In this document: in pieces, positions 2-6,000 of the stretch
Numbering within the stretch: the stretch's first letter is position 1
How the letters are laid out: each line of letters starts with the position of its first letter
IMG/VR virus record: IMGVR_UViG_3300046170_000505
DNA length: 64,000 bases
DNA from: a virus
Direction: 5' to 3' (one strand)
Notes under the pieces: model-generated
What the model was told of the DNA's origin: nothing
The model's database searches: none
Seen by the model: the letters and a program-made list of their open reading frames with translations, nothing else
Program-made: the position numbers and the translations under genes

Positions 2-3000
2 GGATTTGAACATGCAATTTCAGATTTTAAACGTCGTAAACGAGGACTTGCGGGATCTCCTCTTGATTTTATAGATGTCCCTGGAGAAGCTAAATTCGGA
101 CCAACAGCATATAAAAACACCCTTGACGAGCATTTAACAGGAAAATTTTTAAGGCACTTAATTGGCACTGACTCAATATCATGGCCACCACGAGCAGGGT
201 ATGGAAGCTTAGGGCGTCTAGAATATTTTCATACAGAAAGTTTTGGCGCTCCTACTATGAAACATATAGAGCAGCGAAACAAACAAGCCCACAATATAAA
301 AGCAAATTTAGGCCTAATCCCTAATTTTGCAGACTACAGAACTCGTGAACAAAAAATAACAGATTATTTAAATGATCCAGCTAATGACAAAGTAAAGTTT
401 AAAAGGCCTAAAATGCCAGCAAATATAACTCCTACGCAAATAAGTATGGCGATGAATGTCCCAGTAGGAGGTAATGTTACTAAAGAATATTCTGACAATG
501 AAATTAAAAAAGCAATATCAGAAACAATACAGAAAAGAAAAGATTTACAACTGGAGGGTTTTGAAAATTTAAAAAACGTAGACATAGATTCTGTTCTTAA
601 AAAATACAAAGAATCAACAAAAGATGGGGATTTCTATGGCGATAAAGATTTAAGCTATTCTTCTGGTCTCGTTCCTAACTTCGTTGATAAAGTTCAAAAC
701 GGTGCAATCTACTACAGTAAGCCTCACAATAAGATCGTGAGGGTAACTCGCGTAGATAATGACAAGAAAATCGCAAGGATCAAACATCACGACATGGAAA
801 AATACAAAGATGAGGAAGTATTTTTCAAAGATCTTGAAGCAGTTTCAGCTGAACAGGCAAAAGAATACTTCCAGAAAAAGAGTTCTGGCCTTGTTCCTAA
901 CTTTGCACAACAAGCAGGCAATACTTTGTTGATGGAGCCAAGTAAATTTTTTACTTATGCCAACTCAAGCGATGTGGCTAAAGCTCTAGGGAAAGGAGTA
1001 AATTACAGAGAAATTCAAGATAAGATGGACTCACAGGAACCTGTATCGATAAAAGCTAGCCTGCTGGATATCATAACTTCGTCTGACAAAAATAAAACAA
1101 AACCCACTGGAAAAGAAGCATTACATGGCACCTTTAACTCTTTAGCGTCAAAAGGGATTTCTTATATAGAAAGAGATTTTATTTTCAGGCAACTTAAAAG
1201 AAGAGGAGCTAGACAAAAAAAAGGAGAATCAGATCCAGATTTTAACGAAAGAAAAGTCACTGCTCAATTAAATGCGGAACAAGATATAAGAGAAACAGCT
1301 GGATCAACTTACACAAAATATTTATCTACATATAACCCTGAAACAAAAAAGGGCGACCCTTCTTATCCCATCGATCATATAGCAGAAGGTCTTGAGTTTT
1401 CTTCAGGAGAAACTAAAAGCGGAGAATTTATCGCCGCAAATTTGATCTCTAAAAGTTTGCGAATGGCTTCTGATAGAGAATTAACCTCATGGTTAGAATC
1501 TCAAGGCGTTAAAGACAAAGGTCTTGATGAAAAAAACTTAAAAAGAGCTCAAAACCTAGCCTCTCAACTAGGAATAAAAGGAACTAAAAAAGATGAATCT
1601 GAAGAACCCACTTTTGATCAAATAGACGCTGACGCTTGGGGAATGAATAAGGGGTTGGTGCCTAATTTTGCCGATCTAAGCAAATCAGAGAGGCTCAAGA
1701 TGATGAAAAGTACATTAAGTTTCCAGGACGAATACGAAGATTTAGCAAAAATGGGCAGTCCGCTAGCAAAGTGGGCCTTAAAGACCGTCAAGGACAAAGA
1801 ATTCAAGATGATTGGCAATGGAATGGAATCGTGGGCCATAGGAAACGAGGAGGTTGTTTATAAGCTGCCAAGGCCAATGATAGATAGCTTTAGTAAAACA
1901 GGCGATCTAGAACTAAAAAGATGGAGAAAGCAAATGAAAGTGATGGCTCAACCTTCTCTTCAGTATAAAGTGAGTCCAGAAAATAAAGCTTGGAATCTTG
2001 TGCCGAATTCAAATATAGCAAAAAGAGCGGAAAGAATAAGGTCTCAACTTGATGAGCTTGGTATTAATTCACTGTTTTTACCAAAAACAGAGGTGTTAAA
2101 AGTAGCTGGGCAAGACGAGTTTATAACTTCCCAGGAAAGGGTTAAGGGTAGTACTTTTTTTAATCTTCAGAACGAAATTGTTAAAAACAAAAACAATAAA
2201 ACCGACTTTAATCTAGACGGTTATAAGATTGTCGAGCATTTAATGGAAAACATTGGCGAATCCACGATGATAACGGATGTACATTCTGGTAATTTTATAG
2301 CTGAGGCAAGCAAGAAGAAACAACTCTTAAATACGGTTAATCAATTTGCCCCTGTCGGATCAAAAGAATCTAAGCCGTTGAGTAGATTGGGATTGAGAAG
2401 TTTGCCTAATGACAGTATGGCTGCGATTGATTTTTCTTCAGGCCTAATTCCGAACTTTGCTGATTTATACAAGCCATACATGAATAAAGGGGGAAAGGCT
2501 ATAGGTATGGAAAATTATTTCTACAGTTCTAATAATCAGGAGGACGCACTAAATTACATAAAGTCCAACAAAAATTTGAATATAAAAACTGGAAGCTCTG
2601 AGCTCAGGAAGTTTAATTTTCCTCCGAGAGTTTGGGAAATGTTAACATCTAATAATCCTCAGGATATCGAACCTCAGATGAATGTACTGCCAATAGGAAC
2701 CAGGACCCCTATTGGCAAGGGCGACCCTTATAGGGATACAAGTCTCGGAAAAGGGATGAGCGAGCAGGAAGATTTTTATGCCATAGCTTTAAAGAATACT
2801 CTTGGGATAAGGCCTCCGTTCTTTGAAAAAACAGATTCCTGGAGAAACGGTGAGACTTATTCTACCTTAATGACTAACTCGTCGCAATTCAGGGAGATGT
2901 ATAATTTAAACAGGTTGGATGGGAAAAATGTTATTCCTAATTTTGTTAAATATGACAAATCGCGTGGAGGCTCAGGGGCATGGGGAGCTATACCTAATAA

Positions 3001-6000
3001 TCGAGAAGGAAAATATGGAGGTTTTATTCCAAACTATAAAAAACTATATCAAGCATATATCGGTGACGATAAAAACTATAGAGCCAACAGGACTAGTAGC
3101 GCTTGGTATTTTGATAGTCAAAAAGGAACAGATGGAATATTAGATGATTGGCGAGGCGTGGTATCTAGCGGAGCCGTGAGCAAAGGCATTGGACATTTAT
3201 ATGCTCGTGAATATTCACTTAGCGATAGCAACCTAAAAGAAATGACGTCTGGAGTTTACAGTTCTGGGAATTTAAGAAAACTAAGGGTTATGAGTAGAGC
3301 TTTCGAGGCGAATAATGAAATGCCTGATCAAAATGACGAAGAGTGGGAAGATGATCTTGTCAATAATTCAGGAAATGGATTTGATGATGCTTCTGATGAA
3401 ATGGAAGGCAGGCTAGGCGCATATTCAAGACTAAGAAAAACCCAAAACCAAAATCGTTTATGGAAAAATAGTATGGCTGGAACTATAAATAACCCACTAC
3501 CGTTAGCAACATATAAGACTAATGAAATGTTTGGGCCTGGCTACATTATACCTGACTTAGGCGCTCTTGATATTTATCAAGATGGATTTACAACCGAAGA
3601 TGATAAAAAAATAAGGTCAATATTCTCTCCAAATTTAAATCGAGATAATCATCTAATTGAAAGAAAAATATCCGAAAAGCATTTAGACAATAAAGGGTTT
3701 TCAGAAATGTTATCTGATGTAGCAAAAGATCCAGAGAAAGCAATGAATGCTTCCAGAAGAATGGGGATTGAGGGAATAAAAGAGCATGTTGATAATCAAA
3801 GCAAAGGTTTAGTTCCTAATTTTGCTTTTGACCCAAACAGTTTTGAAAAAAATAAACGAGCAAGGAACGTTCATGAACAAATGTTCGGAACGCTTGACAG
3901 CAGAACAAAAGATATCCAAAATCGAAACCAACTTAACAGAGAGAAAGCCTTGCGCGGAGAAGACCCAAAACTATTCGACAGGCATTACCCTGATCCAATC
4001 TTAGGACAAGCAAGAAATAAAATAATCAATGCCCCAACTGGAGGAGGAGAGAAAAATGTTGCTCAAGCTATCAGATCATCAAAAAGGATTGAAAAATCCA
4101 AAAAAGAAGAATTAATAAAACAAATAGGAAGCCAAAGGCTCAAAGACCTAGATGAAAAATACTTAAATAAGTCAAACAAAAATAGTCATACGTCAAGACT
4201 ACAAAGATTTGTAAAACAAAGAAAAGATCTTGAATCAGCTATTCAAAGTGAAAATTTTGAAAAAGCTAGAGAAATCAAAAATGCAGACTTTATACAAAAC
4301 GAAAAAATTTACAACGAGTACGCGAACTATTTAGGAGAAACAAGATATTTAGACTCCGATGTTTCAACAGCAAAAAGAGCTCAAGAAAGATTTGGTAAAA
4401 ATCCTCATTCAGACTCAATGAATGATCCAAACACTTTAGGGTATTATCCAGGTATAACAAAATCTTATGGAGTTCCAGGAGAAAAATCTATATCTTACAA
4501 TCCATACCAAACCGATTACCCTAAAAAAGGCCCAAGATCATTTAGAAACTCTGGTTTAATACCAAATTTTTCTAAAGTTTCAAGAACGATAAAATCTCAA
4601 GAAGATAGGGTCAAGGGTAAAGGAGAGTTTATTGGAGGCGGAGTAAGTGAAAGGGATAAAGACATAGCGTTTAATATGTTTGATCATTTCATTTCTAAAA
4701 TCTCAGGGTTATCTAGCTCTTTTGGATTAAACGAAAGAAGAATGTCTTTAACTGGCACCGCAGAAGACAGAAACTTAATTGAAACATTTAAAACTTCAGG
4801 CAAAAGCGAAAAAGATTTAATTCAAATAGCGGGAAGCCAAAGAAAACTTAGGAATATATTAGACGGCTACATGCTCGGGCATTTTGAAACTTTATTGCTA
4901 GCAAAAGGAAAGTTCAAACAAGCAGAAGACCCTTTAATGCAAGGAGATCTTAGTAAAGGTTTGGTGCCTAATTTTGCGGGCATGGACTTATACAGGGGAG
5001 TAATAAGAGACAAGGGAGCTAAATACAACAAAAAAGATGTTTTTGAACTAACTCCCAAGAGGCAAAAACAATTCGCATCTAGTTCGATAACCAGCATAGA
5101 AGATCTTAAACAATATTTGCTTGGACATACGGATAATCAAAACGCATCGTCCCTAGTATCTACATCAACTCAAAAAAGCGTAGCCATGGAGTTTGCAACA
5201 AGCAAGGATTCTTCAAAGCAAGGGTTAGTATCAAAAGAAAACATGAGTTTTAGACGTATGTACAATCCTAGAAAAGTAGAAAAATTGCTTAATTTTATGA
5301 TGGACAGAAAAGGCTGGTCGGAGGCAAAGTCAGTTCAGTGGTTTTTAGAAAACGCTAAAAATAAAGACATCGGATTTCACATAAAAAGGTGGATGGATGA
5401 AGGTAGTAAATTAAAAAAACAAAATGAGTTTGAAGATGAAGTAGCACTGCTAGGAAAGCAAGCTTTTACTGACAGAGACAACTTAGCCCCTTTTTCAAAA
5501 GGATTAACTCCTAATTTTGCAAACCCTCTTTCAGACGCTTTACAAAGAGAAAAATCGGCTGGCGTACCTAGTTCAAGAATCAGGGTAGAAAAAAGTTCTC
5601 AATTAAAAAGCCCAATGAATCCAATGGGTCTTGCAGTCACAAACACTCGTGATGAACCAGGTGGATTAGCTCAAGGAATAAGAAGAGCCAAAAAACAAGG
5701 AATAGACCCCAAGAGACACGGCATTGATGTTCCAAATTTTGCAACTCCAGTAAGCAAAGATCAATTTGATAAAATTTTGAATGATATTGTATCTAAAGCA
5801 GAAAGTTCATTTAAGGACATAGAAAAAACCCTAGATGACATTGAGCTAGGAGATTTAGCTAAAGATCTTAAAAAGAAATTTGATGATTCAATAGAAGAAG
5901 CGAAGAAAACAAAAGATACCAAAAAAGTTCTAGATATAAAAGACGAAGCTGAAACCATCAAACAAAAAGGGATAGATAAATTTACAAAAAACCCTAAGCA

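Follow-up and report, generated by a model that had tools for sequence, protein, structure and literature searches.

The stretch of viral DNA analysed here (IMG/VR record IMGVR_UViG_3300046170_000505; 64,000 nucleotides, hereafter the window) opens inside a giant gene that, judged by its homologies, is the tape measure gene of an uncultured marine long-tailed phage, and whose product carries a series of unrelated cassettes delimited by a conserved heptapeptide of the type G-[LF]-[VI]-P-N-[FY]-A. Alignment with relatives indicates that this array is inserted at a single fixed position in a tape measure that is otherwise collinear, that its content is fluid, and that the heptapeptide is the joint where cassettes are gained, lost, duplicated and reordered between phages. 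On balance, we consider it probable that the protein is a multi-cargo tape measure that is ejected at infection, with the heptapeptide acting as an exchange joint and perhaps as a processing site.

The open frame occupies nucleotides (nt) 2-12370 of the plus strand (4122 codons) and is free of stops from the first base of the window. It represents the 3' 12.4 kb of a TP901-type tape measure gene of 5036 codons, which is complete on a 142-kb contig and whose full product is referred to here as P0002; 4107 of the 4122 aligned positions are identical, the other 15 being gaps whose place was not located. P0002 starts 929 residues before the window, and in the array region residue i of the window is residue i+929 of P0002. 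A preliminary description, made from the letters of the window, had proposed a tape measure gene, and this identity now follows from a match to PF10145 (PhageMin_Tail) at P0002 residues 117-316, upstream of the window (E 2.2e-25; 90.2 bits against a Pfam cutoff of 33.2), together with homologues of lambda M, L, K and I-J directly downstream. The final 86 residues of the protein also match the tape-measure family phrog_339 weakly. Since PF10145 lies N-terminal to the array, the array does not extend the protein at its N-terminus but is inserted within it: it begins 283 codons before the window, C-terminal to PF10145, and in P0002 it stands between a conserved N-terminal part of 646 residues and a C-terminal part of 2190 residues. 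It comprises 12 cassettes of different families. In the map below, joints were located by motif scan and cassettes assigned by clustering with their relatives; the ratio of nonsynonymous to synonymous substitution rates (dN/dS) refers to L001, the closest relative for which DNA is at hand.

2-310 (+): end of cassette F18, 379 residues in full, starting upstream of the window; eight members in relatives
311-331 (+): motif GLIPNFA
332-664 (+): cassette F6, 111 residues, no known family; 14 members of 99-112 residues; dN/dS 0.35
665-685 (+): motif GLVPNFV
686-886 (+): cassette F13, 67 residues, no known family, tandemly duplicated in some relatives; dN 0, dS 0.23
887-907 (+): motif GLVPNFA
908-1651 (+): cassette F1, PD-(D/E)XK-like globular alpha/beta domain (38-sequence alignment, AlphaFold2)
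1652-1672 (+): motif GLVPNFA; DNA homology with L001 ends at nt 1671
1673-2440 (+): cassette F14, kinase-like (GNGMES loop, VYK, DVHSGN, IDF)
2441-2461 (+): motif GLIPNFA
2462-2926 (+): cassette F16, 155 residues, no known family; nine members
2927-2947 (+): degenerate motif NVIPNFV
2948-3019 (+): spacer of 24 residues between two degenerate motif copies
3020-3040 (+): degenerate motif GFIPNYK
3041-3805 (+): cassette F12, 255 residues, no known family; 12 members
3806-3826 (+): motif GLVPNFA; DNA homology with L001 resumes at nt 3806
3827-4552 (+): cassette F32, 242 residues, very hydrophilic, no known family; dN/dS 0.10
4553-4573 (+): motif GLIPNFS
4574-4957 (+): cassette F4, 128 residues, no known family; 20 members of 121-128 residues; dN/dS 0.12
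4958-4978 (+): motif GLVPNFA
4979-5500 (+): cassette F33, ADP-ribosyltransferase-like (YRG ... STS ... EDE); dN/dS 0.11
5501-5521 (+): motif GLTPNFA
5522-5722 (+): cassette F2, 67 residues, closing module (21-relative alignment); dN/dS 0.04
5723-5743 (+): last motif, degenerate IDVPNFA, array end
5744-12370 (+): C-terminal part of the tape measure, about 2190-2200 residues, no motif copy (frame, motif scan)

Twelve boundary copies of the heptapeptide thus lie in the window, nine of the form G[LF][VIT]PNF (starting at nt 311, 665, 887, 1652, 2441, 3806, 4553, 4958 and 5501) and three degenerate. The nine near-perfect copies of the preliminary description are all where it had placed them, and its module spans agree with those re-derived here to the base. 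It had also counted about four degenerate copies; here three stand at boundaries. A thirteenth sequence, the look-alike NLVPNS at about nt 1994, is conserved inside the kinase-like module as part of that module and is therefore no boundary. Synonymous codons vary freely among the copies (GGC/GGT/GGG/GGA, CTA/CTC/CTT/TTG/TTA, CCT/CCG/CCA, AAT/AAC and TTT/TTC), in keeping with its view that selection acts on the peptide. To place these observations in a wider frame, 102 giant relatives of 2.3-5.4 thousand residues, almost all with PF10145, were cut at the motif and the pieces clustered. They hold 652 strict copies with the consensus (A)-S-x-G-[LF]-[VI]-P-N-[FY]-A, in which the P and the N are present in 100% of copies and an aromatic residue follows the N in 98%. 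A chance origin of the motif is excluded, because the C-terminal ~2200 residues contain no copy, the six frames of the other 52 kb of the window yield one loose match only, and a looser pattern finds 779 copies in the 102 relatives against 4 in residue-shuffled versions of them. The joint between one cassette and the next amounts to about nine residues centred on the heptapeptide. As the peptide is strictly conserved, with P and N in every strict copy, the joint should have a role at the protein level as well. One decayed joint was seen: the close relative P0003 reads GLIPSFA where the window has GLIPNFA (nt 311-331).

The most direct view of exchange comes from L001, which is 88-94% identical to the window in nucleotides over the aligned stretches. 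The two align over window positions 1-1671 and then again from 3806 on; between these points the window has F14, F16, the 24-residue spacer and F12, and L001 has one unrelated cassette. Position 1671 is the second-to-last base of one GLVPNFA copy and position 3806 the first base of another, and the same is true on the L001 side. Across the arrays of all relatives, 30% of the distinct BLASTP segment ends fall within 5 residues of a motif, against 6% of random positions, and 47% fall within 10 residues, against 12%. The suggestion that the repeat serves as a joint for cassette exchange is thereby upheld.

The wider family has the same organisation. More than 100 giant relatives with this layout were recovered from ENA, JGI, NCBI, Logan and Tara, the close relatives of the protein coming from Tara Oceans and other metagenomes. 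The proteins always open with F0, a constant N-terminal stretch of about 635 residues that ends in the first motif copy; it is followed by an array of 1 to 12 cassettes, measuring 425 to 2259 residues among relatives with similar flanks, and then by a C-terminal part of 1450-2590 residues with no motif copies. F2, a module of 70 residues, stands at the end of the array in 43 of 45 complete proteins in which the strict pattern found it, and is detectable in distant relatives too. The cassettes fall into 58 multi-member families of narrow length (for example 121-128 or 70 residues) and 218 singletons. Among 77 complete proteins there are 71 different cassette line-ups; 23 family pairs are found in either order, and tandem duplication affects some cassettes. 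Relatives thus vary in the number, identity and order of their modules, as the preliminary description had anticipated, and are not collinear in the array. The two halves of the tape measure itself are conserved together in every relative. In IMG/VR, 304 loci carry a relative of F2, and 80 of these were fetched for motif and cysteine counts; they repeat the pattern, with a motif density of 4.0 copies per 1000 residues on the upstream side of F2 and of 0.7 on its downstream side. A tblastn search of 50,697 GenBank phage records with the array gave no match, and no relatives of the tape measure N-terminal part were found among 185,579 species genomes. A frame of more than 15 kb from a metagenome could in principle be a chimeric contig or a read-through of several genes. 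We found no point in support of this explanation, and regard it as exceedingly improbable given the shared layout of more than 100 giant relatives from several data sources and of the 304 IMG/VR loci, the purifying selection seen throughout, and the occurrence of P0003 on 11 contigs, at least two of which come from different samples.

Among the cassettes, F1 is the commonest and usually stands first in the array. An alignment of 38 sequences at 17-80% identity has D163, E175, K177, K189 and S190 invariant, and the D..E-x-K among them is the pattern of PD-(D/E)XK nucleases. AlphaFold2 predicts a compact alpha/beta domain (predicted local distance difference test, pLDDT, 88; predicted template modelling score, pTM, 0.87) with D163, E175 and K177 in or next to beta strands. 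The modelled domain starts immediately after one motif and stops two residues short of the next; pLDDT is below 50 in the C-terminal motif and in the opening three residues of the N-terminal one. The model therefore suggests that this module, at least, folds independently and that the joint is a short flexible linker. The best rows of a structure search were weak (FAN1/VRR_NUC, R.BspD6I, NgoMIV and a CdiA-CT; Z 2.0-3.1), comparison with NERD gave template modelling (TM) scores of 0.25/0.32, and searches of the model against the PDB with Foldseek and of the ESM Atlas by shape returned no significant match. With structure matches that reach only Z 2-3.1 or TM of about 0.3, F1 is no more than a candidate nuclease fold. 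A word-indexed search for stand-alone homologues of F1 found two Tara fragments only, so that free-standing forms are still possible.

Two further cassettes resemble enzymes. In F14, the motifs IGNGMES, VYK, DVHSGN and IDF occur in this order in all nine relatives, with K64, D202, H204, N207 and D253 invariant; the first glycine of the Gly-loop (H in two rows) and the glycine of DVHSGN (N or H in two rows) vary. In the language-model comparison its neighbours are clusters of viral kinases, Phage_T7_kinase and Kinase-PolyVal among them (0.93-0.95). F14 has no Pfam match at E up to 1, a profile search of PDB sequences gave only chance rows, and a word-indexed search found no stand-alone homologues, which leaves free-standing forms possible. 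In F33, R13, S68 and S70 are invariant, and EDE is kept in all five aligned rows that reach it, down to 47% identity; the spacing from STS to ExE, about 90 residues, is long. The ten best named language-model neighbours of F33 are all ADP-ribosyltransferase (ART) families (NarE, Pertussis_S1, Scabin-like; 0.92-0.95). It has no Pfam match and only chance rows in the profile search of PDB sequences, and an exhaustive HMMER search of 1.84 billion representatives with its profile gave three matches, all of them other arrays or array fragments. AlphaFold2 with six sequences gave an unusable model (pLDDT 42), because relatives are too few. The kinase-like and ART-like labels accordingly come from conserved motifs and language-model neighbours, which we treat as leads and not as tests. 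The closing module, F2, is the best conserved piece of the protein family, at 48-56% identity where the rest is at 36-40%; an alignment of 21 relatives gives the pattern R-E ... N-P-x-G-L-A-V-x-N-x-R-D-E-P ... Q-G-I-x-R-A, in which R-E, N-P-x-G and D-E-P are invariant. F2, too, has no Pfam match and only chance rows against PDB sequences. In relatives, Pfam matches to staphylococcal nuclease (SNase) and to a CI-type helix-turn-helix (HTH) each lie inside one cassette, and it is only for these that the identity of an enzyme or domain is firm. Of the catalytic motif sets described beforehand, then, the motifs are real and are conserved among relatives of their modules, although a confident model was obtained for the PD-(D/E)XK-like module only; likewise, the claim that modules are independent folds is supported for F1, whereas the attempt on the ART-like module failed.

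Selection and composition set further bounds on what the array may be. All cassettes shared with L001 have dN/dS of 0-0.35, against which the C-terminal ruler part stands at 0.31, and the cassettes are, by this comparison, under purifying selection. P0002 has no cysteine in its 5036 residues; the 102 relatives have 27 in 366,445 residues, with 85 of the proteins devoid of any, and the 80 IMG/VR frames 16 in 244,893. The phage's other proteins, those of the tail tip included, average 1.3% cysteine. Lambda gpH and T5 pb2 are likewise free of cysteine, and the tail-tip neighbours of both have several. Because cysteine is nearly absent throughout, dozens of unrelated cassette families appear to follow the rule of ejected tape measures. 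The cassettes are also strongly hydrophilic, F1 included (grand average of hydropathicity, GRAVY, -0.6 to -1.3), and mostly basic (isoelectric point 8-11). By analogy with these ejected proteins, low cysteine content and hydrophilicity may be adaptations to storage in, and threading through, the tail tube. This near-total lack of cysteine might mark ejected tape measures in general, and could then serve to spot cargo borne in the tube.

Three properties of the array could be turned to a different account, in which the cassettes are structural and tune tail length or assembly, with the motif as a contact for the tail tube or for assembly chaperones: the length of a tape measure is established to set the length of the tail, most cassettes have no enzyme signature, and the cassettes are unusually hydrophilic. 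We judge such a structural role improbable. The F1 model is a compact alpha/beta domain with invariant residues of catalytic type, unlike a helical ruler segment; SNase and HTH domains occur in cassettes of relatives; the array ranges from 425 to 2259 residues among relatives whose flanking parts are similar; and motif spacing, which runs from 24 to more than 600 residues, has no period that would fit a tube lattice. It is also conceivable that the producing cell is where the cassettes are excised, ahead of tail assembly, and where they work, so that the virion never delivers them. A repeated conserved peptide does resemble the cleavage site of a polyprotein, and lambda gpH and T5 pb2 are both cut during tail morphogenesis (PMC10038345). 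However, late cytoplasmic proteins have no cause to avoid cysteine, and use of excised cassettes in the producing cell is disfavoured because the cassettes are cysteine-free, where other proteins average 1.3%, and hydrophilic. Excision would moreover part the two halves of the tape measure, which every relative conserves jointly, and this alternative seems to us very improbable. Taken together, readings in which the cassettes are not effectors or are not delivered appear unlikely.

If the protein is instead an ejected multi-cargo tape measure, as we favour, its working may be pictured as follows, with carriage and ejection of the array inferred from the tape-measure biology of T5 pb2 and P23-45. 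The cassettes would travel in the tail as part of the tape measure, and at infection the array would pass out of the tail tip once the C-terminal part has gone, before the DNA. The C-terminal part would be the membrane-active and ruler part; it has one strongly hydrophobic segment (nt 6497-6565), about 250 residues past the array. The cassettes would then act in the host envelope or cytoplasm as takeover or counter-defence proteins of nuclease, kinase, ADP-ribosyltransferase or DNA-binding type. Since P-N-[FY] is invariant, a reader of the joint at the protein level is called for, of which a protease that frees the cassettes would be the simplest and likeliest candidate; the alternative is a flexible hinge that favours unfolding and leaves the cassettes tethered. 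That the joint is in fact cleaved strikes us as plausible but somewhat doubtful.

The tethered alternative holds that the motif is an uncut hinge and exchange joint, and that the cassettes of a cargo-carrying tape measure act while attached at the envelope channel. Such a mode has been proposed for the RNA polymerase fused to the P23-45 tape measure, which indicates that an enzyme can function while tethered and for which no cleavage is reported (PMC10770324). The absence of any recognised protease or peptidase domain in the protein is what this alternative would predict, and the F1 model, in which the C-terminal motif and the start of the N-terminal motif are floppy ends abutting the fold, suits a hinge. 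Yet a mere hinge needs neither P and N in 100% of 652 copies nor an aromatic residue in 98%, and the presumed targets of nuclease-, kinase- and ART-type cargo are spread through the cell, which favours release. We regard tethering as a possible but tentative explanation. Equally tentative is the most elaborate form of the idea, a programmable multi-effector injector, in which the heptapeptide would be a processing site and about a dozen separate proteins would be released ahead of the DNA. Cutting might fall to a protease of phage or host origin, or proceed through chemistry of the invariant asparagine; a cut between N and F/Y would give products that start with an N-end-rule degradation residue, and hence short-lived effectors. 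Phages would re-arm such an injector by cassette swaps at the same peptide.

Several considerations weigh against the favoured reading, in which presence in virions, ejection and cutting are all conjectural. No processing protease is apparent within the protein: P0002 has neither HExxH nor any cysteine, and Pfam scans of the protein and its modules found no peptidase family, which leaves room for a divergent peptidase among the unrecognised cassettes. The only peptidase gene seen in the window (43048-44250, plus strand) is of the papain family (Peptidase_C1), and nothing was found that ties it to the tail. (Its product bears a long proline-rich stalk of PEPDP type and is anchored by a membrane helix at the C-terminus, which is unusual for a phage.) The predicted functions are open to objection as well. 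Most cassettes belong to no recognisable family, and scans of the whole protein and of ten separate modules with Pfam and PHROG found nothing beyond PF10145 and the weak tape-measure PHROG. The likeness of the F1 model to nuclease folds is weak (Z 3.1 at best), the gap of 51 residues in F14 between the catalytic-loop aspartate and that of IDF is unusual for a kinase, and the ART-like module could not be modelled. Finally, three chains with about 2200 cassette residues each must fit a narrow tube, in which folded domains of 25 kDa could lie only in single file or unfolded.

The genes that follow the tape measure gene lend it a familiar setting. Eight genes form a tail-tip block, recognised by PHROG matches and, for the I-J fusion, by tblastn to the J proteins of 1741 phage records:

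12367-28068 (+): tail-tip gene block, eight genes
12367-13443 (+): homologue of lambda M (PHROG)
21098-22117 (+): homologue of lambda L (PHROG)
22104-22829 (+): homologue of lambda K (PHROG)
22849-28068 (+): I-J fusion, 1739 residues (PHROG; tblastn to J proteins)

The order M, L, K, I-J downstream of the tape measure matches that of lambda. Four genes at 13440-21096 (plus strand), including one for a minor-tail-like protein of 1486 residues (14651-19111), separate the M and L homologues, unlike in lambda, where the M and L genes adjoin each other. Tube and chaperone genes are expected directly upstream of a tape measure gene. This side can be seen only in L001, where the genes could not be assigned to families with confidence; the stretch just before its tape measure gene (L001 1738-8820) encodes proteins of 2360 and 375 residues with faint Ig-like (Flg_new_2) matches. 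Within the C-terminal part of the tape measure, the peptide P-[AS]-M-L-T-x-G-E-x-[VF]-[VI]-P occurs twice, at nt 10868 and 11759, about 300 residues apart. Elsewhere, the window has the gene content of a large phage, with a class I ribonucleotide reductase (large and small subunits), a RecA-like protein, a DnaB-like helicase and several glycosyltransferases (40225-42648, 45577-46590, 56901-58088, 58819-60318 and 47585-49686 on the plus strand; 30391-32313 on the minus strand).

Several known systems share one or another of these features. Polyvalent proteins, described for phages and conjugative elements by Iyer et al. in 2017, combine many unrelated conflict-type domains, among them nucleases, kinases and ADP-ribosyltransferases, in one giant polypeptide, are mosaic, and are thought to enter the host with the DNA; they are delivered from the head or by conjugation, their processing is ascribed to built-in MPTase peptidases, and tape measures are not mentioned among them (PMC5512222). 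The array resembles them in joining unrelated domains, apparently nuclease-, kinase- and ART-like ones among them, in mosaic line-ups, and Kinase-PolyVal is a language-model neighbour of F14 at 0.93, with no Pfam match at E up to 1. It differs in that the carrier is a tape measure, that a heptapeptide stands at every junction, and that no peptidase domain was found. The tape measure of the Thermus phage P23-45, gp96, is a protein of about 5000 residues with a fused virion RNA polymerase that transcribes early genes after ejection (PMC10770324), and it provides an experimental precedent for the carriage of enzymes on a tape measure. It too is a giant tape measure with enzyme cargo (here predicted), but the P23-45 enzyme is a single, fixed, N-terminal one, conserved in related phages, with no array, junction peptide or exchange, and no sequence relation between the two tape measures was seen. 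T5 pb2 fills the lumen of the tube, is expelled and inserts a hydrophobic stretch in the membrane; it is cut after R1127 into pb2* and pb2C, of which the latter, a peptidase, is expelled into the periplasm, and lambda gpH is cut to gpH* during morphogenesis (PMC10038345). The phage described here shares with these the lack of cysteine and the gene order H-M-L-K-I-J. In T5 pb2 and lambda gpH, however, there is one cut and one small C-terminal cell-wall enzyme, in contrast to the dozen internal junctions here and to cargo that, by its motifs, would be aimed at nucleic acids and proteins.

Further parallels lie outside the tail. In the polymorphic toxins reportedly described by Zhang, Aravind and co-workers in 2012, unrelated toxin domains are swapped at junction motifs such as VENN in CdiA. 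There, as in the array, a short conserved peptide is the point of exchange and the cargo varies, although polymorphic toxins are bacterial and have one C-terminal toxin per protein with an adjacent immunity gene, whereas here many internal cassettes ride on a presumed virion protein, and no immunity genes were seen, though no search aimed at them was made. Viral polyproteins have repeated protease sites between functional units, and the conserved seven-residue peptide between every pair of units recalls them, although no cognate protease was found here; we know of no such polyproteins among the tail proteins of tailed phages. Pre-made phage proteins injected from heads include T4 Alt, P1 Dar and the N4 RNA polymerase. 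To our knowledge, enzymes injected from tails are known only as single fixed ones (T5 pb2C, P23-45 RNA polymerase), and the papers that could be searched, on the motif and on tape measures with effector arrays, held no description of a multi-cassette array with a uniform joint inside a tape measure.

On the reading that we favour, the tape measure would serve as an all-purpose vehicle whose uniform joint lets unrelated proteins be inserted, rearranged and dropped. This raises the physical question of how about 700 kDa of non-helical protein is stored in, and threaded through, a tail tube. If the reading is true, it would also provide a natural design rule for loading cargo into phage tails, consisting of the joint peptide, the absence of cysteine and low hydrophobicity. 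The arrangement is widespread, and the cassettes sampled here make up 58 families and more than 200 singletons, almost none with a known family; should delivery be confirmed, they would constitute a large untapped pool of first-strike proteins for host takeover and counter-defence.

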